Shown: positions 10,921 to 27,702 of the stretch, in pieces
Position numbering within the stretch: the first letter of the stretch is position 1
Layout of the letters: each line of letters opens with the position of its first letter
Origin: a virus
Taxonomy: Duplodnaviria > Heunggongvirae > Uroviricota > Caudoviricetes
Length of the DNA: 43,713 nt
Strand: one strand, 5' to 3'
IMG/VR virus record: IMGVR_UViG_3300019755_000001
The notes under the pieces: generated by a model
The model's database searches: none
The model's input: the letters and a program-made list of their open reading frames with translations, nothing else
What the model was told of the DNA's origin: nothing
Position numbers and translations under genes: made by a program

Positions 10921-10988
10921 TGGAGTTTGTTCTATTATTTATCTTTGCTTGTATCATATTCGAACACCTCACCGGCCAGGCTACTTAG
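10920..10988 (+). CDS. 22-aa hydrophobic peptide
   Basis: ATG overlapping the previous TGA, AAGGGG SD; MEFVLLFIFACIIFEHLTGQAT. Confidence 0.35.
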   Translation: MEFVLLFIFACIIFEHLTGQAT

Positions 10989-13900
10989 CCACAGCTGGTG
11001 TTGTTATCATCTTCAGTATGTTGATTGGGTCTCCCCAACCACCTACTTTCCGTAGTATTGCATCTATTGGCGAGTAGTACTGATCCCATGGCGTTTCTGC
11101 GTCTATCCCGCTCACTCCTTGAGCACCTTCTGTTATGAACACTGTTCCTGCTTTTTTACCTAGCATCTTCATCATTGCTGGAAATACTCTGAAGAAGTAC
11201 TTTGTGAAGCTGAATATCAGCGTATCATTCGCATACTTTATCCCTCTATTATCCAAATAACCATAATTTACTGTTAACCCATCCACATAATTCAATACAT
11301 TTTGCTCTACTTGCTTAGCAGTAGCGTCTTTACCGCCCAACTTACCAGCAAACGTTTCATGCTGTTTATCTTTATCAGCACTATTGTAATCTGCCATCAA
11401 GTCTTGGTATATTATCATCTTTGTTATCACATCGGCATATGTCGTTAACTTCATTGTCGAATCATACAGTGGCGAGTCTTTTCGCACGTACAACGTATCT
11501 ATTACTTCTTTTATCCCAACTTTATCATTCTTTCTTTTCAGCTTGTCCAGTACAGCATCCAATTTACCCTCAATTATCCCTTTTTCATTCATCCATTCTG
11601 TGTTCAAATCTTCCAATATCGCAGTGTACTGCCCATCCTTCATCAACGGTTCAACTGGACTGTTTTTCATTCTGTTTTCTATGTTTTTCAACTCTTTTTC
11701 GTCTATTGTTTCACCAGCTTCTCTTCTGATTGCCAGCTTACTTGCCATTCTTCTATCGTCTTGGTATTTATTCATCTCCGACCACATGTCTGTGAATCTA
11801 CCCAAGTACTTCAGTGGGTCTTTACTCTTTGTGTGTTGCAGGGCAATTACCATATTCGACCCATTATTACCAATTATTGTCCCAGCTGTTTTTGCTACTA
11901 CTGCTTGTTTCCAGCCTTGTGTCAACTCCTGTACAATCTTCTCAGCCTTTCTCACCACCAACTGTCGTCTTTTACTGTTCTTTATCATCGGCAAGTTCAT
12001 TGCGCTCATGTCTTTGTATCCAAAGAAGTCTACTAACATACTTTCTTCTACCATCAATCTGCCACCCATTGTTTTATCAATCTGTGCTTTTAAGTAGTAC
12101 GGTATACTATCCCAGTATTCTTTTTCTTTGCCCTCTGAGTTTTCGCTTATCTCTACGAACTTATAATCTCTACTGCTCTCGTACTTTGTGTGGAACCGTT
12201 TGAAGTACGCTATTGCTTCCTTGTTACTTATCATTGCCTCTTGCTTGTGAGTCAAATCCGACACTGTACCACCAACTGTTGGTAATATGTCATCTTCTAT
12301 CTCCAAATACTTACTCTTAACCTCATGTGGTATTCTTACTCTGTAGTCATATATTTCATTCTTACCTGATCTTTCTGGTATTAACGCATTCTTTACTTTA
12401 GCTGTTTCTTTACTCATGTTATCTATTACTATCTCTGCTTCTACGTCTGTTAACTCGTTTACTTCCATTAGAATTCTTCTTAAGCTGTCACCTTCATTCT
12501 TCAGCTGTACCTTGCTCATTAGTCCTTCCGTATACCCAACTTCCATTGATTCGCCTACTACCAAGTACATATCTTTACCAACTGCTTCACTCAGTGCTTC
12601 CTGCTTACCCAAGTTACTCATTTTAGCTCTTTCCAAGCCCTTTAACTCTTTTTCTTCTACTATGTAGTATCTTTTGTTACCAATATACTCTTCTTGCTTT
12701 GCGCCTTTTATTTGGTACATAGAATCTCCACTATATGCATCTTCTAGTACTTTTGCTTCATTTGTTCTCATCAACTCCATTGCGTGGTCAAATCCTTTTG
12801 CCACATCCACTATTTTACCCTCTGGCGTTACCGACTCTTTTGTCAGTGCTTGTATTACCAAATCTTTATTTTCTTTTGCACTGTATCTTAATGCTATCAG
12901 CGACGCCATCTTGTCAATCTCTGCCACTGTCTTTTGGTTTTGTGTCTTTAGTAGTGCGTAACTGATCTGTGATGCATTCACATATCCATTTGCTGTGTCT
13001 GTGCTGTTATCTACTAGTAGTTTACCCAATTGTTCTGTTGCGTCCACTACCTGTTTACTATAGTTGTGTTTAAATATATTCAACTCAGCTGTTATTCTTC
13101 TCTCGTCTTGTAAGTACTTCAGTATTTGCTTACTACCGCCCAGCACTTTCGCATCTGTGTCTATCAGCACTCTCTTTGCTGCTCGTCTCTCACCTTTCGA
13201 TAGTCTACCCAATTCGTAATCTTTGTCCAGTACCTCAATCGTGAAGTGCTTTACTGGTGCTACTGCGTTCTCTACAAATGCTTTTGCGTGTCGGAACATT
13301 TGGTAGAACTTTGCCACATCTTTATTCGACATATCTCTTGTCACACTTGCGAATATGTTATTTTTCAATATGTAACTTTTTGCTTTTGCTATACCTCTTA
13401 TTTCCCATACCTTATCAATCGCTTTCTTCAGTCCACTTTTGTTCTCAGTTTGTCTGATGTAATCAGCGTACGACCTTTGTGCTTTCTTCTCTAGTGTTGT
13501 TAACTCCGCTACTTTACTATCAATCTTGTCTAATCTCTGTAGTAACCTCTCCGAGATAGTCATTTCTTCTTGTTTTCTGTTACTATGACCCAACTCCATT
13601 GCTTTATTTAACATGTCTATTGTTATTTCTCTGGCGTCCTTACCTTTGAACTTAGTGTTTCTGTACACTTGATTGATTATCTTAGCTATGTTGTTCCACA
13701 GCTTCTTCCATCTGCTTTTTGTACCTGGTTCTATCTTCATTGTACCCATTATTTGGTACTCTTCGAACTGATTTACTGTACCAAGTGCTTCTGCTAATTT
13801 CTCATTTGTTGTTGCTGCTGCCAGGAACTCACTTGCTTGGTCTGATGCTATCGGGTTTCTAAACACATATTCCCATCTCTCTTTAGCGAACGCCTTATCT

Positions 13901-14700
13901 TCTGCTGTCACATCACCATCTGGCAAGAATACTTCCCAGCTGATCTCTTTTGCTATTGCGTCTCTCATTCTCAGTATCTGTGATGTCAGTACTTTATCTC
14001 TTACCAGTACATTGTGTATTAGTATATGTTGTAATTCATGTGCTAGTATGTCTGAGTTGCTGTTGAATCTTGTGTTACCTTGTATTAACTTCAATTTACC
14101 ACTATCTACTGTAGCCTCACCTTTTGCGCCTTTATTGTCCAGGTCCTTGAACAGCTCTACGTCAATCTTCACGTCTTTACCAGCTTTCATCAGTACGTCT
14201 TTGTACATATTCATCACTCGCTTCAACTGCTCACTTACTGGCTTACCATCTGCTTCTGCAGCTACTGTTGCTAGTATGTCGATGTCATTTACTATCGTAC
14301 CACCCAATTGTCCCATGAACTCAGTATTTCTTTTACCCTTTTCACTACCCAGTGTGGCCATTGTTATTCCATCTGTCAGCATTCCTGTGTCTAGTTTCAG
14401 ATCATGTTCACCGTTTATTCTTACTTTGTTGTTCGACAACATCTCTGTAGTCTCAACCTTCACGTCAGCTTCTGTGTTAGTTTCCATGTCCTGTAGTGTC
14501 AGTGTCTTACCAACTAGCTCAGAGCCTCTATCGATGTACGGACTGACCCTTTTATCTGGGTCTGCATACATACCTTGCCGAGTAGCTCTGTTCACTCCTG
14601 CCTCAATCCGTCTTTTGTACTCAACTGCTTGTTTAGCAGTTTCTATTACTTCTCTAGCTTCATTTTCTTCGTTTATTAGTGTGTCTAGTTTACATCCCAT
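10981..14700 (-). CDS. Large virion/ejection protein equivalent to the C-terminal part of N4 vRNAP, with zincin-like HExxH domain
   Basis: LAHELQH (H221-H225) plus downstream SEFLA (E291); last gene of the late operon after the RNAP core; single Cys at position 3. Confidence 0.7.
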   Translation of the reverse strand: MGCKLDTLINEENEAREVIETAKQAVEYKRRIEAGVNRATRQGMYADPDKRVSPYIDRGSELVGKTLTLQDMETNTEADVKVETTEMLSNNKVRINGEHDLKLDTGMLTDGITMATLGSEKGKRNTEFMGQLGGTIVNDIDILATVAAEADGKPVSEQLKRVMNMYKDVLMKAGKDVKIDVELFKDLDNKGAKGEATVDSGKLKLIQGNTRFNSNSDILAHELQHILIHNVLVRDKVLTSQILRMRDAIAKEISWEVFLPDGDVTAEDKAFAKERWEYVFRNPIASDQASEFLAAATTNEKLAEALGTVNQFEEYQIMGTMKIEPGTKSRWKKLWNNIAKIINQVYRNTKFKGKDAREITIDMLNKAMELGHSNRKQEEMTISERLLQRLDKIDSKVAELTTLEKKAQRSYADYIRQTENKSGLKKAIDKVWEIRGIAKAKSYILKNNIFASVTRDMSNKDVAKFYQMFRHAKAFVENAVAPVKHFTIEVLDKDYELGRLSKGERRAAKRVLIDTDAKVLGGSKQILKYLQDERRITAELNIFKHNYSKQVVDATEQLGKLLVDNSTDTANGYVNASQISYALLKTQNQKTVAEIDKMASLIALRYSAKENKDLVIQALTKESVTPEGKIVDVAKGFDHAMELMRTNEAKVLEDAYSGDSMYQIKGAKQEEYIGNKRYYIVEEKELKGLERAKMSNLGKQEALSEAVGKDMYLVVGESMEVGYTEGLMSKVQLKNEGDSLRRILMEVNELTDVEAEIVIDNMSKETAKVKNALIPERSGKNEIYDYRVRIPHEVKSKYLEIEDDILPTVGGTVSDLTHKQEAMISNKEAIAYFKRFHTKYESSRDYKFVEISENSEGKEKEYWDSIPYYLKAQIDKTMGGRLMVEESMLVDFFGYKDMSAMNLPMIKNSKRRQLVVRKAEKIVQELTQGWKQAVVAKTAGTIIGNNGSNMVIALQHTKSKDPLKYLGRFTDMWSEMNKYQDDRRMASKLAIRREAGETIDEKELKNIENRMKNSPVEPLMKDGQYTAILEDLNTEWMNEKGIIEGKLDAVLDKLKRKNDKVGIKEVIDTLYVRKDSPLYDSTMKLTTYADVITKMIIYQDLMADYNSADKDKQHETFAGKLGGKDATAKQVEQNVLNYVDGLTVNYGYLDNRGIKYANDTLIFSFTKYFFRVFPAMMKMLGKKAGTVFITEGAQGVSGIDAETPWDQYYSPIDAILRKVGGWGDPINILKMITTPAVAK

Positions 14701-15340
14701 TCATACATTCCTTCAGTTCTTCGTGTCGATTATTCTTTTTATCTGTATCAGTTATGTTACCATCTTTTTGCTTAGTTTCTGCAACCGTTTTTACCTCTAC
14801 TTCACCATCGTCTAGCAGCATTTTGTGTCTCATTAGTGTATCTTCGAGCATCTTTGTTGTATCTTTACCCAACTTACTACCATCTGGATCTGCTGCATCA
14901 CCAATCACTATGTAACCTTTTGCCTTCATCAGTTCTTCCTTGAACTTAGGGTCATTTGCTACTACTTTAGTAACCAACTCTGCCATTAACTGCTTCTGCT
15001 CTAATACTGGTCTTGTTACTTTCTTTCCATTTACCTTCTTCGACTTCTGGAAATTGAACGCCTCAACCATGCTCTTATACCCTACCGTCTTGTTTGTTTT
15101 TGGGTATCTACTGTTCCACACATTCTGTAGGAACTGTACTTCGTTACTTAGTGTGTTGTTTGGGTGCATTACGTTAGTGCCATCAACTATTGTCACCTCT
15201 CCATCTGCTTTCAATTTAGTTATTTTCAGCCCTTGTAGTGCTTCATTCAGCTCTACTTGTCTGCCTGCTGTCTGATTGGCACCTACCTTAGCGTATCGCT
15301 CTGTAAGTGCTATCATTTCGTCTATTATACATTTGCTCAT
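14690..15340 (-). CDS. Middle fragment of split vRNAP locus, NADAR(YbiA)-like domain
   Basis: LSN...YKSMVEAFNFQK...LMAELVTKVVANDPKFKEELMK...D..D...LEDTLMRHK follows the NADAR consensus order; coupled by overlaps to both neighbours. Confidence 0.5.
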   Translation of the reverse strand: MSKCIIDEMIALTERYAKVGANQTAGRQVELNEALQGLKITKLKADGEVTIVDGTNVMHPNNTLSNEVQFLQNVWNSRYPKTNKTVGYKSMVEAFNFQKSKKVNGKKVTRPVLEQKQLMAELVTKVVANDPKFKEELMKAKGYIVIGDAADPDGSKLGKDTTKMLEDTLMRHKMLLDDGEVEVKTVAETKQKDGNITDTDKKNNRHEELKECMNGM

Positions 15341-18300
15341 TAGCAGTTCTCCTCTAGTCTTTGTGTCTGCATTTGGTCGAACTTAGTTTGCAGTACTTTT
15401 CTTAGTTTCTTATCTTCGATATTACCAAGTGTTTCATTTATTGATTGTAGTATACCATTTCTTCTATTTGAGTTACTTTGTTTCTTAGCTTTACTTCGCA
15501 AGTTTTGTGCGAATTGTCCAAGTACGTCGCCAAGCTCAGTTATTTGCTCATCTTTTGTATTTTCGTCGAACACAGCATTTACTGTCTCGTCACCCTTTGC
15601 TTCGTATGCTGGTGCAATGTCTGTAGCGTAGTATTGGTTCGATTTTACTTTCTTACCTCTCATTGCTACTCTGTTATCATGTATTTTATCAATCTCTGTT
15701 AACGGATCACCACTATTCAGTGCCTCAGCCACTTGGTTCACACTTTTCATGTCTGGATATACTCTCTTCATTGCACTCTCTGTCTCGTCGAAGTCAATCA
15801 ACTCTAGTGCTTGTTTGATGTTCAGTTTACCGTCTTTCTTTAGCTTCAGTAACTTCTGTACTGCATTACCAAGTATGCTGTGTCTCATGTTGATGTCCAG
15901 GAACGCTTTGTTCATTGCTTGTGCTTGTAGTATTCCTTTTTCACCATTTACTCCTAGCATCAATGCATCGTACACGTTCAGCACATCTTCTGTATTACCT
16001 TCAATCATTACTGTACCATCCACGTCATGGATTTGCACAACTCCAACGGCTCCAACGTTTGTTACTACATCTTTTACCTGGTTGCTTAGTGTTACTGCTG
16101 TACTTCCACTACCACTCTGGAACCCAGCATTTCTCACCTGTACTGACAGCTTACTTGTGTTTGCATCTGTTTTCTCCAGTTTTACTAATTCTTGTTGTCC
16201 ACCACTAGCATTGTTCGAGCTGTAGTATGTCCCTTCTTTCTGCATCTCAGCGTACACTTTGTCTAGTTGCTTTTGTGTTAACTGCGATATTCTCGTAGCA
16301 CCCAATTTAGCTAGTTTCTTATTCAGCTCTGTTCGGAACACCATGTAGTTCAGTTGCTCAATCAGCTTTACCGACTCTCTGAACTTCACTACTTCACCGA
16401 ACTCTGTTGTGAACGCATTTGCTAGTTGTTCACCAACTTGTTCATCTATTGCGTTGGTTAGTGTATTTACTGTCTCATCTTCCATATACCGTACTGTTGT
16501 GTCACCTTTAGCAACTCTGTCTGCTAGTTGTTTTTGTAACTTCGCTATTGGTTTTTTACTTGCTTCAGCTTCAGCCTTATCATCTGCCGCTTTTGCTAGT
16601 TTCTTAGTGTCTTTGTTGTACTTCAGCATCTTGTTTGCACTAGCAATCGTTTCATCGTACTTTGCTATCTCTTTTGCCAATTGTACTTCACTTTGTACTT
16701 TACCATTTTCTGGGTTGTATATCTTGTTCTCGTACTTAATCTCCAACTCAGCAGCTGTCTTACCTGTTAGTTTTTGCAGTGCATCTGTTGCACCTTTACT
16801 CATTCCTCCAGGGATGTAGCTATTACCAACTATCAGTGATCTTGCAGCAGCCTGACGGATGTTTGCCATTCCAGCACCGTATATGAATACCATTACTGGT
16901 CCCTTCATGAAGTTTCTCCACTTACCTCCTAGTACTTCTTCCATTGCTGCTAGTATCTCTGCTCCACCTTCTTGCTTCAGTATTCCCTCAACTACCATTG
17001 TTTCTGGTGTTTGGTATATATCTTTACCGCCTTGCTCTTTGTATTGTCCATGATTGTCGTACCGGTCGTAGTAATCATCAACGTACATCCCAGTTTTCGA
17101 TAAGTGCAGTTTTGTTGCTTCTGTGTACCCAATTTGCATTAGTGTCGCACTCATTCCGTTAGTAATCCCATCTATCTCTAGTGCCAAGTTAGTTGTTGCT
17201 ATACCGTGCTTTTCCAAGTCATTCAGCATTTGTACCAACTGTAGTGTGTGTAACTTCTCATCTATGCTATGTACTCCACCCCATTTGTTAACTGCTTCTA
17301 GCGTACCTTCTTTTACCATTTCTTCGAACTCTTTACTGCTGTATGTTACTTTTGCATTATCGTCGATAGTGAAGTATTTCTCACTCATCTTAGCTATTGA
17401 TGTAGCATCTTCCAACTTATCGATGTCCATGTCCAGTGCTTGTGCTGCACCAGCTCTTACGAACGCCATTGTCTCCTTGTCTACTTTACCAGTTTCTATT
17501 GTTGTTGTCATGTCTCCTGCACCTACCAGGAATCTACTGATCTTACTGTTTTGTGGGTTCATCATCATTGAGTCCATCATTGTTCTACCACTTTTTGTGT
17601 AGTCGTACGGGATGTAGAACTCACCAGCTCCTACCATCTCATACACTTCAATCATTCTCTCTATCTGCAACTCATCTGCTGTGTACTTAGCGTGCACCGA
17701 CTCAGCGTTCATTGTTGCTGTACTTGCCAGTATTGTGTCCAAGTCCCCCAGTATGTCCATTTTAAGCTTATCTACGTCAATTGTATCATCAGCTTTAGCA
17801 TATTGTCCCAGTACTTTGTGTGCCTGTTCACTGAACGTCCACGGTGTAGTACCCAATCTCTCTTGGTACTCAACTGCTGGATCACTCATCTCTGTGCTTG
17901 TCTTTCTTGCTTTCTTACCTTTCTTTGTGTGTATTGGTTCTGTGTCTATTGTTGGTGTTGTACTGCTTTGTGCGAACTCTAGTGTTGACCCAACTCTAGC
18001 GTATTCTGCCGGCACATCTTCCATCATCAGTACGCTGATTACTCCACCAGGTCTCTTGTCTTCACTTGGCTTCTCGAAGTCTATCATCCCGTGTTGCACG
18101 AACGCATTTTGTCTGTATACACCGTTCTTATGTGACGAGTGTGTTCTTAGCATGTTACTTAATACCATTGCTCCTAGTGAGTGCTCAATCGCGTTCTTAT
18201 CCTCAATTATTAGTGAATCGTCTAGCTTTATTCCCATCTCAGTCAGTAGTGTCTTACCTGCTGATTCATACAGGCTTGCTGCTGGTACTAACTCTCCTCG

Positions 18301-21300
18301 TTTTATCTTGCTTTCTAACATCTTCTTCGAACTATCTGGAACTATTCCTGTTGCTGGGAACAAGTTACCGAACGAACCATCTATCAAGTCGTGCATCTGG
18401 TCTCTGTTGTATGTCATCATTGCTTTTGCTTTACTGAACATTATCAGTGATGTTGTGTCCATTGCACCCTTTACCAACTCAGCATTTTCTGGGTCTGACA
18501 GTATGTCGTTCATTCCACTTTGTATCAGTATGTTCTTGTCGTTTAGCTCTAATTTTGCTAAGTTTGTTTGCTCTAGTACTGGTATGTTAGCTCTGTCTGT
18601 GCTGAACGTATTCAGTGTTTTCAATGCTGTTTTTACTCTCTCTACGCCTTTTTTACCAGCGTTTTGGATGATTCTTGGCATGATTTTCATCAATCCAGCT
18701 TCTTTATCTTTCATGTTCAATACTGTATGTGTAGTACTTACTCCGCCTGACTTCGACTTAGTTATTCCCTCAACTACCGGAATACCTAGTGCCTCAACCT
18801 TTACCATCTCCTGTGCTTTTTTCTTGATCTGAATGTCGGCTTTTACTGATTTTATCTTTTTGTCAACCTCTTTGATCTCTTCTTTAGCCAGTCTGATGTT
18901 CTCTTTTTGCTCTACTATTATCTTCTTCAATGAACCAATAACTTCTCTTGCTGTCTTGAACAACTTCCATACTCTTTGTACCAGTGTTTGTGGTGCTAAG
19001 TCTTTTTTGTTCTTAGCAGCTTTCAGCATCTTGCTAACCATTGTTAACCTGCTCTTGTGTTGGTCCATTCTACTTTGTATTGCTGCTTTGTCACTCTCTA
19101 GTTTACCAAGTTCTACTGTGTACTCATCTATGTCGTTTTGTACCTTCTCGATTATCTCATTTACCAACTCTGCGTCTAGCCTCTTACCAGCCTTCACTTG
19201 CACTATTTGCTCACCAACTTTCTTTACTGCTTCATCTATTGACTTCTCAGTCTTTTCTGTTGCTTCGGCCACTGTCTCTGCTGTTGTTTCTTTTGGCTTA
19301 GTAACTTCTCCGTCTTGCTTTGCTCGGATCTTCTCTGCTACTTCTACCTTTGTTTCTTGTGGTATTGTGCTATCGGCATCAACTTGTGCCATTGCTCTGT
19401 CCAAGTCACCCTCATTTTGCTCTATTACCTCATCTACGAATAGGTCTGGTGCACTCTCATCTGCTTGTGGTATGTTTGTGTCCTCGTACTTAGCTAATTC
19501 GGCTACTATTGTGTCCTGTTGTGCTGTATCAGCTGATTCTTTACTTAATAGCTCTGTGTACATCGATTTGTACTGTTTTAGCTCCAACTTCTCCTTGATA
19601 CTAGCAATCGCATCCATTTCACCATTCAGTGCTGTTTGTGCCTCTGTAATCTTCTCTAGTTGAGCCGGTGTCAAGTTACCAGATTCTATCGCAGCTTCTG
19701 CTATTTCTGCCATTCTGCTATTCTCTGCTTCTTGGCTCATTATGTAGTTGCTAATCTCTTGTGGTGTACGCAATCTCTTTACTTTTACTCGTTGCTTTTG
19801 ACCTTCAACTTTCTTCGATTGTGTTGTCACACCTTCCAGCTTACCAACTCTTGAGTGCATGAATGTTGTTAGTTCATTCACTACTCCACTTGCTGCATCT
19901 TCGTCTTTTGTTAGTGGGCTAACTATTGTCCCGACTACATCTGCTTCGTGCTGACGTAAACTCTTACCAACCGAGTTTCTTTTCACGAATCCCATAAACT
20001 CAATCTCATCTGCTACTTGTTGTGCTGTCTTTTTTGGTGATTTACCATCCTCATTTGCTTCACTACCAAGTTGTTTCTCATACAGTTCTAATCCATCTTC
20101 AACCTTGTTAGCATACTGTGTTACCGGCTCACTACCAAGCTTTCTCATGTCTTGTAGTACTGCTTTAACCTTCGCTAGTCCTTCAGCGTTTAATGGAGTA
20201 TTTTCGTTGATCTCAGCTTTCTGTTCATCTGTCATTGATTCAGTTAGTGTATCTATTTCTTCTGCTACTCTGTTGCTGTATATTTGCTCTATTTCTGACT
20301 GAGTAACCATCCCAACTTCTTGGTTTTTTATCATTTCACTCAGCATTGAGTCAACTTCAGCGTCTGTTGCAACTCTTACTTCGTCTTCACCTTTCGATGT
20401 CATGTGTCTTACAGCATCTCTTACCAATCCAGCATGCAGTACATCCATTGCTACTTTATCTGTTTTGTCTACACCATACACGTCTGCTATCTTTTCAGTA
20501 GCGTCTTTCATTGCATCAAGTGGTCTACCAGCATATCCTGACTTCTTCTGTATTTCCGGACTTGTCCATATCTCTGTAGCATATGCAGCAATATCATGTG
20601 CGTGTGCTTTTACTGCTTCTGGAGCAACTTCGTACCCTTCACTACCAACTGACTCCCATCTATTTTGTCTACCATCTCTTGTCTTTGACACATCAACATT
20701 TGTTGGGTCTGGTTGACTGTCTGTGATATTTACCAACTTCTCATTAGCTACTGTACCAACTGTTTTTGCCACGTCATACCCTACTTTTGGTGATGCTATT
20801 TGTGTACCCATTGCAGCACCTAGTACTCCTGCTACTTCAGCTTCTTTTATCTCGTCTTCTGTGAACCCTTTGTCGAATACTCTTGGTGTTTGTGCGGCTG
20901 TTTCAAGGAATGTTTGTCCTGCCTCAGTTAGTCCTTCTACTCCACCAGCAGCAGCAAGTCTTAACGGAGCTGACCCAATCTGTAGTATCCCTCTACCGTA
21001 TTGTTTAGCAAGGGTTCGTTTACCTGTTTGGCTCATGTTGTCTACTACTGTCTTTAGTGCTTTCTTAACTGGATTCATTCCGCTTAATGCTAGTTTATCA
21101 CCGAATCTATCCAAGTATGTACCAACAATACTTGACCCAGCACTTAGTACTTTCTCATTTGTTGTTAATTTTCTCTTTAATTTCGATTCTGCTATGTTAA
21201 TGTTATTATTTACGTTAGCTACGGCCATTGTACCAACACTTGCAGCTAGTGCAACCATTTCAGGTAAGCTCCCTGCAAGCACTTCAAGTGATCTTACATC

Positions 21301-22176
21301 CGTTACAGCTTTACCAAGTGCCGACATATATCCATCTGTTTCTATTGTGTCTTCTATCTCTTTACTCAGTTCTTGCACGTTTACTGCATTGTACCCAGTT
21401 ATCTTATCAGCAAACCCACTTTGTAGGAACTCTGTAGCAGCTTGTTGTATTGCTGTACCACTTTTCTCTACATCCTCAACCCCAATCAGTTGTCCAAGTG
21501 ACTCAATCCCCTCACCAACAAGTGAGCCTACTTTTACCCCTACATTGAACGAAGCACTACCAACTCCTCTTAGCGTGTTGTAATCTTCTACTGGTCTTAC
21601 TGTTTCTGTGCCACGTTTACTAGCAACTGATTCCATTTCTGCAGCGTACTCTGGGTCAGCCCATAGTCCTTTGCCTTGCTCTTTTGCTTGTAGCATCAGT
21701 TCTTGTGCTTCTGGTGTTTGATTATCGAATGCAGGTATTGCATACCCATCGGATACCATTTTATTCTGGTATGCCTTATTCTCTATCACGTCTCTACCAT
21801 GCACCCCAACTGTCGATGCTTCTGGTGTATTCTGATATACTGGTTGTTGTTTTGTATCGTCGAAGTGTGTTTCTTGGAAGCCCCCATCAATTCCACTGAA
21901 ATCCAGTGTACTGAACTCAGCCTCTAATTTAGCGGCTTCTCCAGCTGTTGCTTTACTTACGTGTCTACCAAGTTTACTTTCTCTTGCTTTGCTCAGTCTA
22001 TCAGCTTTTAGTGCAGCTTTTGGCATTTCTGGTGCATCAATTCCAGCTATTCTATATCCTTGTCCGTCTTGGTATACGGTATCAGCATCGTATATGTATG
22101 TATCTGTGTTGTATTTATTTGTTTGTGTAGTTGGTTCTGCGAACGCACTATCTAGTAATTCTTTTTGAGTTGGCAT
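15340..22176 (-). CDS. Virion-encapsidated single-subunit RNA polymerase (N4 vRNAP-like) with N-terminal SNase/thermonuclease domain
   Basis: Motif A LALEIDGITNG (~17154-17188), motif B WRNFMKGPVMVFIYG (~16876-16923), motif C NVYDAL (~15960-15979); SNase motifs YDADT, RIAGIDAPE, HGR, MVSDGYA, AKEQGKGLW in aa ~25-176. Confidence 0.9.
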   Translation of the reverse strand: MPTQKELLDSAFAEPTTQTNKYNTDTYIYDADTVYQDGQGYRIAGIDAPEMPKAALKADRLSKARESKLGRHVSKATAGEAAKLEAEFSTLDFSGIDGGFQETHFDDTKQQPVYQNTPEASTVGVHGRDVIENKAYQNKMVSDGYAIPAFDNQTPEAQELMLQAKEQGKGLWADPEYAAEMESVASKRGTETVRPVEDYNTLRGVGSASFNVGVKVGSLVGEGIESLGQLIGVEDVEKSGTAIQQAATEFLQSGFADKITGYNAVNVQELSKEIEDTIETDGYMSALGKAVTDVRSLEVLAGSLPEMVALAASVGTMAVANVNNNINIAESKLKRKLTTNEKVLSAGSSIVGTYLDRFGDKLALSGMNPVKKALKTVVDNMSQTGKRTLAKQYGRGILQIGSAPLRLAAAGGVEGLTEAGQTFLETAAQTPRVFDKGFTEDEIKEAEVAGVLGAAMGTQIASPKVGYDVAKTVGTVANEKLVNITDSQPDPTNVDVSKTRDGRQNRWESVGSEGYEVAPEAVKAHAHDIAAYATEIWTSPEIQKKSGYAGRPLDAMKDATEKIADVYGVDKTDKVAMDVLHAGLVRDAVRHMTSKGEDEVRVATDAEVDSMLSEMIKNQEVGMVTQSEIEQIYSNRVAEEIDTLTESMTDEQKAEINENTPLNAEGLAKVKAVLQDMRKLGSEPVTQYANKVEDGLELYEKQLGSEANEDGKSPKKTAQQVADEIEFMGFVKRNSVGKSLRQHEADVVGTIVSPLTKDEDAASGVVNELTTFMHSRVGKLEGVTTQSKKVEGQKQRVKVKRLRTPQEISNYIMSQEAENSRMAEIAEAAIESGNLTPAQLEKITEAQTALNGEMDAIASIKEKLELKQYKSMYTELLSKESADTAQQDTIVAELAKYEDTNIPQADESAPDLFVDEVIEQNEGDLDRAMAQVDADSTIPQETKVEVAEKIRAKQDGEVTKPKETTAETVAEATEKTEKSIDEAVKKVGEQIVQVKAGKRLDAELVNEIIEKVQNDIDEYTVELGKLESDKAAIQSRMDQHKSRLTMVSKMLKAAKNKKDLAPQTLVQRVWKLFKTAREVIGSLKKIIVEQKENIRLAKEEIKEVDKKIKSVKADIQIKKKAQEMVKVEALGIPVVEGITKSKSGGVSTTHTVLNMKDKEAGLMKIMPRIIQNAGKKGVERVKTALKTLNTFSTDRANIPVLEQTNLAKLELNDKNILIQSGMNDILSDPENAELVKGAMDTTSLIMFSKAKAMMTYNRDQMHDLIDGSFGNLFPATGIVPDSSKKMLESKIKRGELVPAASLYESAGKTLLTEMGIKLDDSLIIEDKNAIEHSLGAMVLSNMLRTHSSHKNGVYRQNAFVQHGMIDFEKPSEDKRPGGVISVLMMEDVPAEYARVGSTLEFAQSSTTPTIDTEPIHTKKGKKARKTSTEMSDPAVEYQERLGTTPWTFSEQAHKVLGQYAKADDTIDVDKLKMDILGDLDTILASTATMNAESVHAKYTADELQIERMIEVYEMVGAGEFYIPYDYTKSGRTMMDSMMMNPQNSKISRFLVGAGDMTTTIETGKVDKETMAFVRAGAAQALDMDIDKLEDATSIAKMSEKYFTIDDNAKVTYSSKEFEEMVKEGTLEAVNKWGGVHSIDEKLHTLQLVQMLNDLEKHGIATTNLALEIDGITNGMSATLMQIGYTEATKLHLSKTGMYVDDYYDRYDNHGQYKEQGGKDIYQTPETMVVEGILKQEGGAEILAAMEEVLGGKWRNFMKGPVMVFIYGAGMANIRQAAARSLIVGNSYIPGGMSKGATDALQKLTGKTAAELEIKYENKIYNPENGKVQSEVQLAKEIAKYDETIASANKMLKYNKDTKKLAKAADDKAEAEASKKPIAKLQKQLADRVAKGDTTVRYMEDETVNTLTNAIDEQVGEQLANAFTTEFGEVVKFRESVKLIEQLNYMVFRTELNKKLAKLGATRISQLTQKQLDKVYAEMQKEGTYYSSNNASGGQQELVKLEKTDANTSKLSVQVRNAGFQSGSGSTAVTLSNQVKDVVTNVGAVGVVQIHDVDGTVMIEGNTEDVLNVYDALMLGVNGEKGILQAQAMNKAFLDINMRHSILGNAVQKLLKLKKDGKLNIKQALELIDFDETESAMKRVYPDMKSVNQVAEALNSGDPLTEIDKIHDNRVAMRGKKVKSNQYYATDIAPAYEAKGDETVNAVFDENTKDEQITELGDVLGQFAQNLRSKAKKQSNSNRRNGILQSINETLGNIEDKKLRKVLQTKFDQMQTQRLEENC

Positions 22177-22232: not shown

Positions 22233-23588
22233 TTATTTAGCGTTATCTTTTATGTATTTTACTACATCTTTAGTAACCTCTCCACTGAACCGAGGGGTCC
22301 AATCTTGAGTATTGAATGTTGTGATTATACTTGCCAAATCAGCGTCGCTCATCTTAACATCTTTTGCTGCTTTTGCTATTTTAGCTTGGTCTTTTTCGTC
22401 AATTGTGCCTAACCCACTATCGTACGCTTGTAGCGTTTTTGGCCCAGCCCCATATTTCTTTGGTGTCTTGAACGCATCCCCTCGGTTGGCATATTGTTTA
22501 GTGCCTTTTACGTAATCCAGTAGAGCAGTACCTGTTAACCCCTTTGGTATCTGAATGTTCAATGTTTTAGCTAAATTTGTACCGACTCTGTGGTCATCTT
22601 GTGTTTCTTTTTGCATCTTTTTAACCTTGAACAGCTGATCGAATGTAGGCCCTTTAACTTCTTTTTCAAGAGCTTTCTTTGCTGCTAATTTAGTGCTACC
22701 AGTCAAGTCTGTTCTATTCATTATAGAGTCTACTGACTTCTTTAACCACTCTGTTTGTGTCATATTACGTGTAACTGGTACTTGCTTAGTAACTGTCTCA
22801 ACTAGTTTTGGTACTGTTGGCACTTCTAATGTACCACGAACTCCACCTAGCCCTGATTCTCTCAGTGCAAGTGTATGTGCCTGTTCTGGAGTATACATTT
22901 GTTCACTTGGTTGTTTTTTACCTAACCATCTACCAAATACTGAATCTGCTTCTATATAGCTACCATCGGTATTTTTAGTGTACTGTGTACCAGGAACCCT
23001 AGGAGCAGCACCAACTTTTTGATTACTGTATTTATCGAACAGTTCAGCATATTTTGTAGAGCCTTCTTCTTGTTGTTGTAACCTTTTTGTATTTTTATCA
23101 ATAACTCGATTACGCAGGTTTTTAGCAAGTTCGACTTCTGCCTCATTGCCTTGTCTCGTTACTCTTTTCTCTGTACCAGTAATCGTTTTATCCTGATTTG
23201 CTTGTACCAATGCATCCCCAAGTAACTTATCTTGTTCTGCTTTATTTTCAGCTCTTGTGTTTGTGTTTATTGAGTTCTGCAACGTCACACCCTTAGCAAG
23301 TACACCAGCATCAACTCCAGCGAACTTCTTATCACTAACGTCCCCGCCAGCAATTACTGTTTTTAGGTACTCCGAGTTCAACTTGTCTTTAGCCTCAGCT
23401 TTGTTCCGTTGTTCTCTTTGTTCTGCTAATTCAACACCTTTTATCACTGTATTACCAAGTGTATTGAATACACCACGAGTTGCATCTGCACCGGCAATTG
23501 CTGCCTGTTGCGCTGACGCTGTTGCTCTATTAGCACCACTCAAGTAAGCATTTGCTTCTGCACTGTTATCATACCAACCTTTTGCCAT
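22233..23588 (-). CDS. Internal virion/ejection protein (N4 gp51 position)
   Basis: 451 aa, Cys-free, Ala/Gln-rich N-terminus, directly upstream of vRNAP. Confidence 0.6.
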   Translation of the reverse strand: MAKGWYDNSAEANAYLSGANRATASAQQAAIAGADATRGVFNTLGNTVIKGVELAEQREQRNKAEAKDKLNSEYLKTVIAGGDVSDKKFAGVDAGVLAKGVTLQNSINTNTRAENKAEQDKLLGDALVQANQDKTITGTEKRVTRQGNEAEVELAKNLRNRVIDKNTKRLQQQEEGSTKYAELFDKYSNQKVGAAPRVPGTQYTKNTDGSYIEADSVFGRWLGKKQPSEQMYTPEQAHTLALRESGLGGVRGTLEVPTVPKLVETVTKQVPVTRNMTQTEWLKKSVDSIMNRTDLTGSTKLAAKKALEKEVKGPTFDQLFKVKKMQKETQDDHRVGTNLAKTLNIQIPKGLTGTALLDYVKGTKQYANRGDAFKTPKKYGAGPKTLQAYDSGLGTIDEKDQAKIAKAAKDVKMSDADLASIITTFNTQDWTPRFSGEVTKDVVKYIKDNAK

Positions 23589-23592
23589 GCTG

Positions 23593-23940
23593 TTATCCTA
23601 CTTGTGGTATTGCAAACGGATTTTGTTGCGTGTTTTGTGCTTGTGGTATACCAGCCGCACCAGCTAACCCTGTTTGTACTGTTGTTTGTCCAGGTATCGG
23701 AGCAGCAGGCTTCTTGTTACCATACAAGCTGTTAGCTAACCCCATCTCCATCTCGTTTTGTGTGTTTTCCTTAGCTATATCTGCTTTACCGGCTAACTCT
23801 TTTGCGTAATTGAATTGGTCTCGTGCTAACTGATTCATCTTTGACTGTTGATCAGCCATCATTTTAGCACTCTTTACTCCACCATAGGCTTGTAACCCAC
23901 CACCTATTACTGATCCGGCTGCTTGTATCCATCCTGACAT
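23593..23940 (-). CDS. Small ejection/pilot protein (N4 gp52 position)
   Basis: Gly-rich amphipathic N-terminus MSGWIQAAGSVIGGGLQAYGG followed by a Gln-rich coil; Cys-free. Confidence 0.6.
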   Translation of the reverse strand: MSGWIQAAGSVIGGGLQAYGGVKSAKMMADQQSKMNQLARDQFNYAKELAGKADIAKENTQNEMEMGLANSLYGNKKPAAPIPGQTTVQTGLAGAAGIPQAQNTQQNPFAIPQVG

Positions 23941-24006: not shown

Positions 24007-25149
24007 CTATTTTTCCCATGGCTTCTTCCACACATTTTCCATTGATTTCCGTATATCTGTTAGCTCTTTTTCCATTCCACCTAAGCCAGCTTCAATTACA
24101 CTTAGCTGCTTCATTGTACTTTCATAGCTCTCTTTAGTTTTCATAGCGGAGGGCAAATCGTTGTAAGCATTTGCTATACTTTTGTACTGAGCAACTTTAT
24201 CATTGTATGTCTTTGTCTTGGTATTATACTGCTTAGTTAGCTTATTATAGTTTTGTAGGTTTCTCATTCTTATTGCTTCCTGTGGAGGCATTCCTCCACT
24301 GCTTTCACTCACATCTGTGTTTACAATATTCAAGTTGAATTTGTTTTCGAATAGCCCTCCTCCAGCTTGATCGGCATCTACGTGATTAATTAATTTATTT
24401 CCCTCACTTAACCCAAACTCACCACCAACACTTACTGCAAGTGAGTTCTTTTGGTCATATCCATACAAGTCACCACCTGAGTAGGTTTCGTTGTATATAA
24501 CTCCACCAGCCATCTTTTCAAACACCGTGCCATCCGCTACATCTATTAGGTTCTGATACCGTAGCCTAGCTTCTTGCTCTTGCGCCTGTATCAATTGTTG
24601 CATAGCAAACTGAATTGTTTTTGGGTTCATCAAGTGCGACAGTGCTCCATTTATTACACCACCTATTATTAATGAGATACCAAGACCAACAACTATCTCT
24701 GTTATGATTATCATTGACGCAGCAGCTACATAAGCTGCTCCACCGAGCCATGCACTGGCACCTGCAATAGCACCAGCAGACCAATCTGACATCGTTCCAG
24801 CAGAGAAGTAAGCTAGAGCTAGTGCTGCTACAATTACCCCAATGGCAGCAGTGCTGTACGCATCATCATAGAAAAAATCCTTTACTATTTTACCGAACCA
24901 ACTCCTGTCATCTAATCCAAGAGGTTTATACAAGCTTAAGTACTCCTGTTGTAGAAAGTCACCATGAGCGGTAACAACATCCGAACCGAATTCCTCAAAT
25001 GCACCTGACCAGCTATCTCCGCTAACAACACTACCAATAAACTTAGCAGGGGCTATAACATTCAACTGGAGAGACATCTTTATCTCAGCTACTACTAAAT
25101 CACCAACCTTCTCAAGTGCGGAGCCTACCTTTTTAGCTACCCCGCCCAT
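24007..25149 (-). CDS. Hydrophobic membrane-inserting virion/ejection protein (MGGVAKK... start)
   Basis: ATG 25149 with AAGAAGGG SD inside the 3' end of the GNAT gene; long multi-helix hydrophobic block in the N-terminal half; C-terminal coiled coil; Cys-free. Confidence 0.65.
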   Translation of the reverse strand: MGGVAKKVGSALEKVGDLVVAEIKMSLQLNVIAPAKFIGSVVSGDSWSGAFEEFGSDVVTAHGDFLQQEYLSLYKPLGLDDRSWFGKIVKDFFYDDAYSTAAIGVIVAALALAYFSAGTMSDWSAGAIAGASAWLGGAAYVAAASMIIITEIVVGLGISLIIGGVINGALSHLMNPKTIQFAMQQLIQAQEQEARLRYQNLIDVADGTVFEKMAGGVIYNETYSGGDLYGYDQKNSLAVSVGGEFGLSEGNKLINHVDADQAGGGLFENKFNLNIVNTDVSESSGGMPPQEAIRMRNLQNYNKLTKQYNTKTKTYNDKVAQYKSIANAYNDLPSAMKTKESYESTMKQLSVIEAGLGGMEKELTDIRKSMENVWKKPWEK

Positions 25150-25679
25150 TTTGACCAACCCTTCTTCCACTCGTATAGGTTCTCCCCAAGCTCTGACGGA
25201 ACTACACAGTTTTTGAACGTGTGTATATCTCTTGATTCTATCAGCATTGGTTTCTCCTTATTTAGTGATTTTATTATTGCTTTGAACATACTACCAACTA
25301 CTGGCTTACGTCTCAACTCTTCTTGCACATGGAAGAACGCAAACACGTTATAGCCTTCTGTTTCGAACGTTAATGCAACCCCAGCGTACTTTCTTGTTTT
25401 CTTATGTCTAATTATTGCACCATAGCCAAGAGCCACATAATTTTTCATCTCAGTCCTAGTTGGTAATTCCATCTCAACACCAGTATCTTTCAAGTATTTT
25501 AATACTTTTACTGTGTCTTTTGCACCCATCCTCATCAGCTCGTATTCATCATTACCAGTTGGCTCGAACTCAGGCTTGGCCTTTTGTTCTATCAATGGTT
25601 TTACCAACTTCTCAATCTCTTCAATTGTCGGTAGTGACTTTATTCGTTCTATGTTATTGTGTGCAATTGTATTTACCAT
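25137..25679 (-). CDS. GNAT-fold acyl/acetyltransferase
   Basis: YELMRMGAKDTVKVL (beta1-alpha1), YAGVAL, FFHVQEELRRKPVVGSMF (motif A-like VxxxxRxxxxGxxL). Confidence 0.65.
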   Translation of the reverse strand: MVNTIAHNNIERIKSLPTIEEIEKLVKPLIEQKAKPEFEPTGNDEYELMRMGAKDTVKVLKYLKDTGVEMELPTRTEMKNYVALGYGAIIRHKKTRKYAGVALTFETEGYNVFAFFHVQEELRRKPVVGSMFKAIIKSLNKEKPMLIESRDIHTFKNCVVPSELGENLYEWKKGWSKWAG

Positions 25680-25680
25680 A

Positions 25681-26547
25681 TTATACCTCTATTGTACAAC
25701 TTCCGTAGAAGTTCCCCAGTCCACTAGCATTTACCAAGTACTTGCCTGGCTCTTCTCTATCCAGGAGCATACACAGTTCTATTGCTGTGCTAACTCCTTG
25801 TGTGTGACCTATTTCTTTCTTGTACTCAATCAGCTCAACATCACCGTACATTTCTTCGATTGCAGTATACTCAGCCTCAGTGTTGTTTGGTGTCTGTGTA
25901 CCATGTGTTTTCACTGCTTTTATCTGCTCTTCGGCAAATGGTTTCATAGCCTTCATATATCCTTCTTTACTTACGAAGAACGGATTTTTGTCTGCATGGT
26001 ACACCCAATTCACTGTACTGATTTGTTCACCTCTTTGTAAGTGTAATATAGCAAACCCATCACTACAAGTTAGTGTTATCCCCATCTTCTCGAACAGCAG
26101 TCTTTGTGTTGGATCAGTCCAGTCTTCGGCATACACAATCACATCATCGAACTTATTGCTGTTTAGTAGCATCTCAGCTTCCTGTAGTGCGTGCATACTA
26201 GCCCCACAGGTATTGGCACATATACTCAAGTAGTCAGCACCGTATCGAGCAGCTACTTTACTTGCTATGAACCCAGCTTGACTTTGTACTGGCATTACTC
26301 CTTTTGGTATTGGTGCTGTATCTGTGAAATCCCTAGAGCAACTATGGTGTTCACTTGGACCAATTACGTACAACACAGCAGTTCTACCAGTTGGTTTGAT
26401 ACTGTTTACCTTGTCTTTATATGTCCGACTATTGTATGTGTTCATAAACGTTTTATCACGCTTCTCTAATGTTGATCCTATGTACATAGCCTTACCATCT
26501 TCACTTATTGTGTCTGGCAGTACGTAAACATAATTAACTACGTTCAT
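25681..26547 (-). CDS. Compact beta-ketoacyl-ACP synthase (FabF/FabB-like ketosynthase)
   Basis: Catalytic C114 (ANTCGAS), H215 (KTHGTQT), K243/H248 (YKKEIGHTQG), SDGFAIL, NNTEAE, NASGLGN, equivalent to FabF TACS, HGTST, KSMTGH, NSFGFGG. Confidence 0.88.
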   Translation of the reverse strand: MNVVNYVYVLPDTISEDGKAMYIGSTLEKRDKTFMNTYNSRTYKDKVNSIKPTGRTAVLYVIGPSEHHSCSRDFTDTAPIPKGVMPVQSQAGFIASKVAARYGADYLSICANTCGASMHALQEAEMLLNSNKFDDVIVYAEDWTDPTQRLLFEKMGITLTCSDGFAILHLQRGEQISTVNWVYHADKNPFFVSKEGYMKAMKPFAEEQIKAVKTHGTQTPNNTEAEYTAIEEMYGDVELIEYKKEIGHTQGVSTAIELCMLLDREEPGKYLVNASGLGNFYGSCTIEV

Positions 26548-26773
26548 GGTACTCTCTATACAAGTCTCTAATTGTGTATGTTTCGTAGTCTATACCATTA
26601 ACGTACTCATTGCCAAGTTCTACTACCTCGGACTCGAAGTAGGCCCAGAAGAATGCGTACGAGAACGAGTCCATTTCACTATTTATTAGCAAGTCGTCTA
26701 TATCCAGTATTTCAAGTCCATCCTGTTCTTCGATGAACTCATTTATCTGACTTAGGAATTGTTCTTCAGTCAT
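26534..26773 (-). CDS. Acyl carrier protein
   Basis: 79-aa very acidic helical protein (ATG 26773, AGGTGG SD); EMDSF with Ser36 at the phosphopantetheine position; C-terminal TIRDL (TVxDL motif). Confidence 0.8.
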   Translation of the reverse strand: MTEEQFLSQINEFIEEQDGLEILDIDDLLINSEMDSFSYAFFWAYFESEVVELGNEYVNGIDYETYTIRDLYREYHERS

Positions 26774-26782
26774 ACTAACCAC

Positions 26783-27307
26783 CTATGCCGCAGGTGATAA
26801 GTCTGGATTTAACGGAGCTGCCTCACCTGTTAATGCTGCGTTTAGGTTGAAGTACGTTGCCCACATTGTTGCTGTTGGTTTTAACCCTCCTGCTCCAACT
26901 GTACCAATCATATCACCCATACTATCCATTGCTTTAATTAATTTATTGTGCTCAACTTGCTCGATTAACTTCTCTTCTTGTGTCTCAACGTATGCAGTAT
27001 CTGCAACCATTTTGGCAATCTGTGAGTCTAGTATACCACCTTGTTTAGCGATGTTATCCACCTCTAGTTGGTATTTACCTTCTTTATCAGCTAATGCTAG
27101 TGCTGTTTGCATAGCCCCTGTTGTAATACTAGTTGTTATGTTTGCTATGAAGTTAGTAAGTAACTCAGCTTTTTCCTTCTCAGTAATGTTGAAGTTATTG
27201 AACTCATTCTGTACGAATGCTTTTGTTAAGTCATACGGACTGCCATCAGCTGTTGCTGCCGCCATTAGGTTTGTATATTTTACTAAATAGTCTTCTGTAA
27301 ATGCCAT
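26783..27307 (-). CDS. Virion structural protein (N4 gp54 position)
   Basis: 174 aa; synteny downstream of MCP/gp55-like genes. Confidence 0.5.
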   Translation of the reverse strand: MAFTEDYLVKYTNLMAAATADGSPYDLTKAFVQNEFNNFNITEKEKAELLTNFIANITTSITTGAMQTALALADKEGKYQLEVDNIAKQGGILDSQIAKMVADTAYVETQEEKLIEQVEHNKLIKAMDSMGDMIGTVGAGGLKPTATMWATYFNLNAALTGEAAPLNPDLSPAA

Positions 27308-27702
27308 TAATCTATTCCTTGTGTTGTTTTATTAGTTGTTGTAGTACCATTATCATCTACATACGTATGTGTATGTGCTGTATAAGCCTCAGTGTCTAAT
27401 GTACCATCTGGATTGAACGTCACTTCAAGTGCTATTGCTATTGCATCCATTTTATTGTTTAGTATAGCAAGTTCTGTATTAATTGTACCTGTATCGGTCT
27501 CAAGCGTATCCAGTCTATCATTTGTGTTGTTTGCTGATACTGCCGTGCCTGTGAAGTTAACACCAAGCGAAGTGGCCATTGAGAGAAATCTTAGTCTATC
27601 GTCTTCGTATTTACTATCTACGTCAATAACTATTGTGTTAGCTTTGGCTATACCAATCTTTCCGAACTTTTTACTTTTACCGTTTAGTATTGATGTACCC
27701 AT
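27307..27702 (-). CDS. Putative small fibre/spike protein with coiled coil and HxH motif
   Basis: Heptad segment LDTLETDTGTINTELAILNNKMDAI, then AHTHTY near the C-terminus. Confidence 0.45.
   Translation of the reverse strand: MGTSILNGKSKKFGKIGIAKANTIVIDVDSKYEDDRLRFLSMATSLGVNFTGTAVSANNTNDRLDTLETDTGTINTELAILNNKMDAIAIALEVTFNPDGTLDTEAYTAHTHTYVDDNGTTTTNKTTQGID

Follow-up and report, generated by a model that had tools for sequence, protein, structure and literature searches.

In the NodF/NodE system of rhizobia a special acyl chain is N-linked to an amine acceptor, with transfer carried out by NodA, an enzyme outside the GNAT superfamily. HlyC and ApxC are small acyltransferases that depend on acylated acyl carrier protein (ACP) and are encoded beside the membrane-inserting RTX toxin that each activates. 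Animal viruses classically use lipid-modified virion proteins to enter cells; for tailed phages, we found no description of such a modification. In podoviruses (SIO1 pc40 and the cobaviruses), a GNAT gene that neighbours the genes of the internal virion proteins has been described and compared with T7 gp13 (PMC6775973), and the ACP of one schitovirus has been annotated as an auxiliary metabolic gene (PMC11705849). Here we have characterized a three-gene cassette, encoding an ACP-like carrier protein, a minimal ketosynthase (KS) and a GNAT-fold protein, in a 43,713-nucleotide (nt) stretch of DNA, referred to as the window, from the tailed-virus record IMGVR_UViG_3300019755_000001 (Caudoviricetes). 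The cassette lies directly ahead of the gene that occupies the position of the tail plug gene gp53 of phage N4. The initial annotation of this DNA knew of no characterized equivalent in tailed phages; this holds for the combination of ACP and KS in a virion cassette, on which no publication was found, and not for a GNAT gene beside internal virion genes, which was already in print.

The three genes form a genuine, conserved cassette whose enzymology is plausible. We observed directly the family and fold of its three proteins, the conservation of their catalytic residues, a fixed gene order and a fusion of carrier protein to KS. Each component belongs to a known family; what is new is the shortened KS, the GNAT-fold protein lacking a P-loop and the fixed viral context. 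We put at about even the chance that the trio constitutes a carrier-protein-dependent acyl-transfer pathway that is also tied to the plug and ejection module, and rate the pathway part of this statement, taken alone, as more probable. The three genes and the gene that follows them are listed below, with lengths in amino acids (aa) and the basis of each assignment; AF2 denotes AlphaFold 2 and A4 and A7 are alignment profiles described in the text.

26534..26773, minus strand: acyl-carrier-protein-like gene, 79 aa; start ATG 26773; putative phosphopantetheine site Asp35-Ser36; profile A4 against ACPs in the PDB
25681..26547, minus strand: minimal KAS I/II-type beta-ketoacyl synthase, 288 aa; PF02801; Cys114/His215/Lys243/His248; AF2 model
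25137..25679, minus strand: GNAT-fold acyltransferase-like protein, 180 aa; AF2 model; A7 profile; degenerate P-loop; Arg123 the sole near-invariant residue
24007..25149, minus strand: next gene, in the position of the N4 gp53 tail plug, 380 aa; start context; jackhmmer homologue in locus L019

Families, folds and catalytic residues of the three proteins

The three genes are closely coupled to one another and to the gene that follows. The ATG of the carrier-protein gene at 26773 has AGGTGG eight bases upstream, a GTG at 26782 being the less likely start, and the stop codon (26536-26534) lies within the KS gene, whose ATG at 26547 produces an overlap of 14 nt. A single base separates the KS stop codon (25683-25681) from the GNAT ATG at 25679, and the ATG of the next gene at 25149, with AAGAAGGG upstream, is placed 13 nt within the GNAT gene. 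No minus-strand terminator-like site was found between the capsid and RNA polymerase genes, in a promoter and terminator scan that performed at chance level.

The KS matched PF02801 (28.9 bits; cutoff 20.8), and the Pfam N-terminal KS domain (PF00109) was not detected in the window protein. A large protein collection held 69 homologues of 175-307 aa, the full-length ones being 273-307 aa and nearly all of them metagenomic. Cys114, His215, Lys243 and His248 do not vary among 28 homologues, which share 32-72% identity with the window protein, and these four residues align with Cys163, His303, Lys335 and His340 of FabF; Thr219, Asn222, Glu226 and a C-terminal GLG are also invariant in these sequences, and the alignment to FabF takes in its Thr305, Thr307 and Glu314. 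Retention of the full set for decarboxylative condensation across so divergent a family argues for an active enzyme, and this conservation of the catalytic set leads us to predict that the phage KS is active. The AF2 model of the KS (predicted local distance difference test, pLDDT, 90.5; predicted template modelling score 0.90) superposed on KAS I, KAS II and the ketosynthases of polyketide synthases (PKSs) with Z scores of 27-28 over 270-281 of its 288 residues (Foldseek E ~1e-12), the alignment running from the first to the last residues of solved chains of 390-420 residues. The phage protein is ~110-120 residues shorter than every solved ketosynthase aligned, with the shortening spread along the chain. 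Since the model superposes end to end on full-length chains, this protein is the whole KS core minus insertions and not a fragment. In the model it has the two-half thiolase fold, and it is a shortened variant that falls below the ~400-aa length of the family. At the gate loop, GFGG in FabF, the phage KS reads GLGN. In one related locus (L014:5713-6804; IMGVR_UViG_3300032212_000021) one continuous reading frame joins the carrier protein to the KS in a single protein of 363 aa, in which the DS motif and the KS catalytic residues are intact.

The carrier protein of the window had by itself no Pfam match, PF00550 included. Related loci yielded orthologues that make up a single family of 32 distinct sequences, eight of which matched PF00550 (best E 1.8e-4), and throughout this family Asp35-Ser36 is invariant and Gly38 nearly so. 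The family profile (A4) matched ~60 solved ACPs and almost nothing else, with NodF as the best match (E 1.3e-5) and AcpP, AcpM, DltC and mitochondrial ACPs among the others. The Asp-Ser pair aligned on the phosphopantetheine serine (DSL) of NodF and the other ACPs, and Ser36 of the window protein has the same position as Ser36 of Escherichia coli AcpP. Judged by its sequence, the 79-aa protein fits the ACP family in being small and in having a D-S-(L/F/M) serine at the predicted start of helix II. This helix reads DSFSYAFFW in the window protein and DSLDTVELV in AcpP.

The third protein by itself had no sequence match in Pfam, PHROG or the PDB, and a word-based homologue search returned only the query; an exhaustive profile search recovered 71 cluster representatives, mostly of 128-150 aa. 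An AF2 model made using 59 relatives (pLDDT 87.7) matched GNAT structures only (Foldseek E ~1e-4, probability 1.00), and the 50 PDB matches listed were all GNATs (Z 12-13.2; root-mean-square deviation 2.5-3.3 Å; 119-139 residues). Most of the closest folds are protein N-terminal acetyltransferases (NatA, Ard1, NatC and RimI; Z 12-13). The 59-member profile (A7) reached GNAT structures by sequence as well (3bln, E 4.8e-5; a RimI-type enzyme, E 2.7e-4), PF00583 was weakly matched by nine of the 59 members and a lead from the ESM Atlas was concordant with a GNAT fold. Profiles of the small alignments A5 and A6 found nothing useful in the PDB, only A7 reaching the GNATs; A6, the version of the protein present in most N4-like loci, is homologous to the A7 family (hhalign probability 96%). 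On the evidence of the model, the third protein is a GNAT fold with its core at residues 43-177. A two-helix N-terminal extension (residues 1-42; 25554-25679, minus strand), modelled at a pLDDT of 55-81, is absent from most of the 128-150-aa relatives.

Few residues are conserved in the GNAT family, Arg123 (98%) being the only one close to invariant among the 59 members. Motif A (Q/R-x-x-G-x-G/A) occurs in none of them, a Gly at +3 occurs in one and the window protein reads R-R-K-P-V-V; in the A6 alignment even the motif-A arginine is missing. In GNATs that use coenzyme A (CoA) the P-loop holds the diphosphate and adenine of the cofactor, and this loop is replaced in the carrier-protein-dependent enzymes SbzI and FeeM (PMC11685415). 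By analogy with these two enzymes, the degenerate P-loop fits a carrier-protein donor, and adjacency to and co-occurrence with a carrier protein provide further support for such a donor. A predicted complex of the GNAT family with the carrier-protein family scored 0.15 against a mark of 0.32, a value that counts neither for nor against such a pairing.

Most of what the initial annotation had read from this cassette agrees with these results. The ACP, KS and GNAT genes lie at the positions that it gave, on the minus strand, and the junctions that we read from the sequence reproduce its three tightly coupled genes and their overlaps. Its ACP with a DSF motif at Ser36 corresponds to the invariant Asp35-Ser36 aligned on the known phosphopantetheine site, and its intact C114-H215-K243-H248 set in the KS recurs unchanged in the 28 homologues and aligns to FabF. 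The third reading frame was correctly assigned as a GNAT, on both fold and profile; the motif A ascribed to it is not canonical, only Arg123 being retained and the full motif occurring in none of the 59 relatives.

Gene order in related phages and bacterial elements

We surveyed 40 IMG/VR loci with a KS homologue, contigs from ENA, Logan and NCBI, and GenBank record MW202545; seven GenBank schitoviruses without the cassette (N4, Piffle, phiEaP-8, RHph_X2_28B, RPP1, R7L and Ebordelon) served as controls. The cassette arrangement recurs in ~40 independent contigs and is thus no product of chance. Searches of all open reading frames (ORFs) with hidden Markov models (HMMs) located the GNAT gene directly downstream of the KS gene in 34 of the 37 IMG/VR loci with enough sequence. 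The carrier-protein gene lies directly upstream of the KS gene in all but a few loci, being fused to it in L014 and falling outside L046, which is cut at its 5' end. Because ACP, KS and GNAT keep the same order with overlapping stops and starts in these IMG/VR loci and likewise in ENA contigs, a Halarcobacter anaerophilus prophage and MW202545, and because of the fusion in L014, we consider the trio to be functionally linked. In two loci (L038:6854-7153 and L047:6771-7082) an unrelated protein of 99-103 aa replaces the GNAT, and the protein that follows starts with Met-Asn. In locus L025 a 161-aa ORF upstream of the carrier protein appeared GNAT-like by eye and was rejected on hhalign probabilities of 2.5% and 0.4%.

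The gene order of N4-like loci with the cassette is gp57, capsid, gp55, gp54, ACP, KS, GNAT, a large protein, a small protein, a gp51-sized protein and the virion RNA polymerase. An HMM of the large proteins matched N4 gp53 (1.4e-27) and one of the small proteins matched N4 gp52 (9e-13). In all seven control schitoviruses gp54 is followed directly by gp53, with no GNAT in the slot. N4-like phages without the cassette therefore have an empty slot, so that the three genes are present or absent together in this lineage. A study of the N4 ejection proteins shows gp54 to be the tail tube, gp53 the tail plug, gp52 the former of an outer-membrane pore, gp51 the periplasmic tunnel and gp50 the ejected polymerase (PMC13434306).

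Similar arrangements were found outside the N4-like loci. In prophage-like regions of Halarcobacter anaerophilus the trio precedes a short Met-Gly-Gly protein and a gp52-like protein, and in MW202545, an unrelated podovirus, it precedes putative ejection proteins. Homologues are also present in Aliarcobacter and Sulfurospirillum, and a search of species-representative bacterial genomes gave a single match, to a Sulfurospirillum metagenome-assembled genome. One of the H. anaerophilus regions (L007; CP041070.1, 1534875-1551744) has, in addition to the trio, an SU10-type adaptor and, a few genes downstream, the signature of a diversity-generating retroelement (bAvd and RVT_1). The window showed no DNA similarity to any of 50,697 phage records, and when these records were searched by tblastn with the gp54-like protein, the carrier protein and two versions of the KS, the metagenomic MW202545 was the only match and no cultured phage was recovered; no cultured schitovirus was matched by the KS or the carrier protein. 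As no cultured phage with the cassette is present in the collection searched, the Halarcobacter and Aliarcobacter copies offer an experimental route. The linkage to ejection genes, on which the first interpretation of this cassette depended, is kept in at least three podovirus lineages, and the three family assignments and conserved gene order were borne out by HMM, Foldseek and synteny comparisons.

The viral record to which the window belongs is 107.7 kb long and bears direct terminal repeats, and its source is an N4-like (schitovirus-like) phage that encodes, all on the minus strand, an SU10/N4-type portal (PF23899, E 1e-111), a major head protein (phrog_1357) and gp57- and gp55-like proteins. 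The genes that flank the cassette and its downstream neighbour are as follows.

26783..27307, minus strand: N4 gp54-like tail-tube protein, 174 aa, directly upstream of the cassette; HMM; phrog_34316
23593..23940, minus strand: Gly-rich protein, weakly gp52-like, 115 aa; gp52-family HMM E 0.004; position
22233..23588, minus strand: protein in the position of N4 gp51 (periplasmic tunnel), 451 aa; assigned by gene order relative to N4 alone; no family match
15340..22176, minus strand: first and largest piece (2278 aa) of a split virion RNA polymerase, at the end of the ejection module; gene order

The 174-aa protein is a member of the N4 gp54 family (E 7e-32 with an HMM built from 30 homologues in the loci, which matched N4 gp54 itself at 2e-17) and the downstream genes reach the virion RNA polymerase, in keeping with the original placement of the trio between the gp54-like gene and the ejection genes. 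Three coupled ORFs (2278, 216 and 1239 aa; 10981-22176, minus strand) share out the polymerase, and the third of them (10981-14700) matched the virion RNA polymerase family phrog_2206 (E 1.1e-65; profile positions 2280-3359 of 3406). Between the gp55-like and gp54-like genes is a 131-aa ORF (27307-27702, minus strand) that has no Pfam or PHROG match and groups by BLAST clustering (family F24) with larger proteins found at the same place in a few loci.

Proposed pathway, acceptor and alternative explanations

From these observations we infer each chemical step, the reliance on host enzymes and the acceptor of the pathway. The trio would be expressed with the late virion genes as a private acyl-transfer pathway, in which a host phosphopantetheinyl transferase would convert the phage carrier protein to its holo form and the minimal KS would load Cys114 with an acyl chain drawn from the host pool. 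This chain may then be condensed with malonyl-carrier protein, to give a beta-ketoacyl chain that is two carbons longer, or may simply be handed to the phage carrier protein. The GNAT-fold enzyme, with its degenerate CoA-binding loop, would take the acyl group off the carrier protein and place it on an amine, for which the candidate sites are the N-terminus of the next protein (Gly, Ser or Ala after removal of Met) or a lysine.

The plug or ejection protein encoded next is the leading candidate acceptor by position and translational coupling alone. In the window this protein comprises 380 aa from the ATG at 25149, begins MGGVAKKVGS, contains an extended hydrophobic block as well as a coiled coil at its C-terminal end, and belongs to no Pfam or PHROG family, jackhmmer having detected a homologue in L019. 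The 31 distinct N-termini of proteins that follow the GNAT start with Met-Gly in 18 cases (Met-Gly-Gly in 11), Met-Ser in seven, Met-Ala in two and Met-Pro in two, such that 27 of the 31 have an M-[G/S/A] start; the background of Gly at position 2 is 6% among 369 other ORFs of the same loci. Otherwise unrelated downstream proteins also have in common an acidic amphipathic N-terminal stretch of ~45 residues, which is compositionally biased and makes the E-values soft, and N4 gp53 aligns to the family of downstream proteins only from residue 90. These starts and the acidic stretch would suit an N-terminal acyltransferase. The N-terminus of gp53 in cassette-less phages (L049, which is N4, and L050-L055) is strongly conserved as MG[LMIF]F[SG]S[KR]K or a close variant, and this pattern (Gly2, Ser6, Lys7/8) resembles the eukaryotic N-myristoylation consensus. 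The first 28 residues of N4 gp53 are outside the segments described for the cryo-EM model; the same paper makes no mention of acylation, and the uses of 'lipid' considered in it refer to bilayer experiments (PMC13434306).

Several observations weigh against a pathway tied to the plug and ejection module. Three loci (L025, L038 and L047) keep the ACP and KS without a detectable GNAT, and a fixed slot between structural modules could equally mark a permissive insertion site. The carrier protein is divergent, its motif being DSFS in the window and DSFG in most homologues as compared with DSLD in AcpP, and may or may not be accepted by host enzymes, and neither a phosphopantetheinyl transferase nor a malonyl transferase (FabD) nor an AMP-binding enzyme or acyl-ACP synthetase was found in the 107.7-kb phage genome. 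As the phage has no phosphopantetheinyl transferase of its own, modification of the carrier protein would require a host enzyme. The proximity of the third protein to N-terminal acetyltransferases is tempered by the over-representation of these enzymes in the PDB, with the top 50 Z values falling within ~2 units. The gp53 of all seven cassette-less N4-like phages also starts with Met-Gly; Gly2 is thus a trait of the plug family that does not discriminate, and these proteins rule out the Met-Gly start as specific evidence of N-terminal acylation. Two proposals of the initial annotation are affected by these findings. That the phage makes its own acyl donor stands in so far as it encodes its own ACP and KS, and does not extend to the three absent activities, for which it would depend on the host. 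That ejection proteins are lipidated was not sustained, since nothing points specifically to such an acceptor once Met-Gly is seen to be shared by cassette-less gp53. We therefore regard a virion protein as a rather doubtful acceptor for the acyl chain. The fuller proposal, that these phages N-acylate their own virion protein with a long chain, the GNAT behaving as an N-terminal acyltransferase and placing a fatty or 3-oxo-fatty chain from the phage carrier protein on the Gly, Ser or Ala N-terminus, or on a lysine, of the next-encoded plug or ejection protein as a lipid anchor for entry into the host outer membrane, we think unlikely.

The product of the trio may instead be a small molecule, such as a late-released signal or a membrane-active lipid, with the position in the virion operon being incidental, as for a moron. 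This explanation gains from the FeeM-type N-acyl amino acid synthases (NASs), which are carrier-protein-using GNAT folds with altered P-loops (PMC11685415), and from the expectation that a KS without a reductase or dehydratase would give a 3-oxoacyl chain; a match of one GNAT family member to the N-acyl homoserine lactone synthase model (E 0.061) is at chance level. We consider it distinctly unlikely in view of the constant slot, the translational coupling of the GNAT gene to the plug gene in three podovirus lineages, the lack of Pfam matches of useful E-value to the FeeM/NAS or LuxI families and the identity of the nearest folds as protein N-terminal acetyltransferases. A different chemistry is raised by the GNAT-like decarboxylases, which act on carrier-protein substrates (PMC11685415): the GNAT-fold protein could be a malonyl-carrier-protein decarboxylase of the CurA/GphF loading-domain type that primes the KS with acetyl, leading to acetoacetyl-carrier protein, a short polyketide or a boost to host fatty-acid synthesis. 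ACP, KS and GNAT make up the domain content of loading and condensing regions, and a metabolic role has a precedent in the annotated schitovirus ACP (PMC11705849). We assign a low probability to such a decarboxylase, as the GNAT family has no conserved His/Thr pair (61% of members have His at position 81, where the window protein has Tyr, if the positions are taken to be structurally equivalent), the active-site Cys indicates that the KS is not a KSQ-type decarboxylase, the divergence of carrier helix II from AcpP is not suggestive of feeding the host fatty-acid synthase and a metabolic booster has no need of a fixed place beside the plug gene.

Two further explanations move the acceptor elsewhere or remove the chemistry from the third protein. 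ACP-dependent acyltransferases modify bacterial envelope lipids, and the acyl group could pass to the host envelope (an amine of lipid A or lipopolysaccharide, phosphatidylethanolamine or peptidoglycan) late in infection, leaving virion proteins unmodified, and serve in lysis timing, superinfection exclusion or release. Presence of the cassette on temperate elements of Campylobacterota agrees with this, whereas its linkage is to plug and ejection genes and not to lysis genes, and the three sequences, read by eye, have no visible signal peptide or membrane anchor; an envelope acceptor is accordingly improbable. Finally, the GNAT-fold protein may be a non-catalytic assembly factor for internal proteins, in the manner suggested for T7 gp13 in morphogenesis, with the ACP and KS as an unrelated travelling pair. 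The podovirus GNAT gene beside internal virion protein genes that was compared with T7 gp13 (PMC6775973) is in line with this possibility, as are the scarcity of conserved residues in the GNAT family and the loss of the motif-A arginine from the large A6 subfamily. However, ACP and KS accompany the GNAT in the same order nearly everywhere, the catalytic residues of these partners are invariant, hhalign of A7 and A6 with T7 gp13 gave probabilities of 0.2-0.3%, indicating no similarity, and cassette-less N4-like phages have no GNAT of any kind in the slot; we see little chance that the third protein is such a factor.

The carrier-protein-dependent pathway linked to the plug and ejection module is the reading that we prefer. 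A cassette that is conserved, phage-specific, catalytically intact and always ahead of plug or ejection genes provides a testable handle on phage entry, and the way in which the plug and ejection proteins of short-tailed phages enter the outer membrane is an active structural question (PMC13434306, PMC8954989). Should the acceptor prove to be a virion protein, the cassette would reveal a new principle by which phages enter cells, and virus-encoded lipidation of proteins would gain a new class; long-chain N-acylation would parallel, in a bacterial virus, the myristoylated penetration proteins of animal viruses, with the donor pathway encoded by the virus. Even if the product were a small molecule, a 288-aa KS with a matching orthogonal carrier protein would be of interest for enzymology and engineering.

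Comparison with known systems

The phage KS shares with FabF and FabB (KAS II and KAS I) and with the KS domains of PKSs the entire core fold and the Cys-His-His-Lys set, and differs from them in spanning chains of 390-420 aa with 288 aa. The podovirus genes of SIO1 and the cobaviruses resemble our third gene as small GNAT-fold genes directly ahead of internal or ejection genes, whereas the phage GNAT described here has its own carrier protein and KS. The third protein and its relatives had no Pfam match to PF11090, and T7 gp13, compared as a single target sequence, had no hhalign similarity, in a comparison that could miss a very distant relationship. HlyC and ApxC correspond to the phage system in the proposed logic and differ in that HlyC uses host acyl-ACP, with no private ACP or KS; the window protein (E up to 1) and 59 + 18 relatives had no Pfam match to the HlyC family of toxin-activating lysine acyltransferases. 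RimI, Ard1/Naa10, Naa30, Naa50 and N-myristoyltransferase have the closest folds, and the Met-Gly/Ser/Ala start of the next protein is of the kind that they accept once Met has been removed. These enzymes use acyl-CoA and have a canonical P-loop, N-myristoyltransferase has a duplicated GNAT fold and identity to the phage protein is 7-15%.

Closer parallels in organization are found among bacterial carrier-protein systems. GdvG, of goadvionin biosynthesis, reportedly joins a chain to a peptide N-terminus. FeeM (with FeeL), GdvG and SbzI (with SbzG) resemble the phage enzyme in having a GNAT fold, in being accompanied by a dedicated neighbouring carrier protein and in having lost Q/R-x-x-G-x-G/A, and GdvG is counted among the ACP-dependent GNATs (PMC11685415). 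These enzymes have no detectable sequence relationship to the phage protein and come from bacterial natural-product clusters, and carrier-protein use by the phage enzyme is predicted. NodF/NodE of rhizobia differs from the phage pair in its full-length NodE of ~400 aa, as against 288 aa for the phage KS, and in its bacterial, symbiosis-related setting. The likeness is that of a private carrier protein and a KAS I/II-type KS which operate outside the housekeeping fatty-acid synthase while relying on the host, and NodF is the solved structure that best matches the phage carrier-protein profile (E 1.3e-5).

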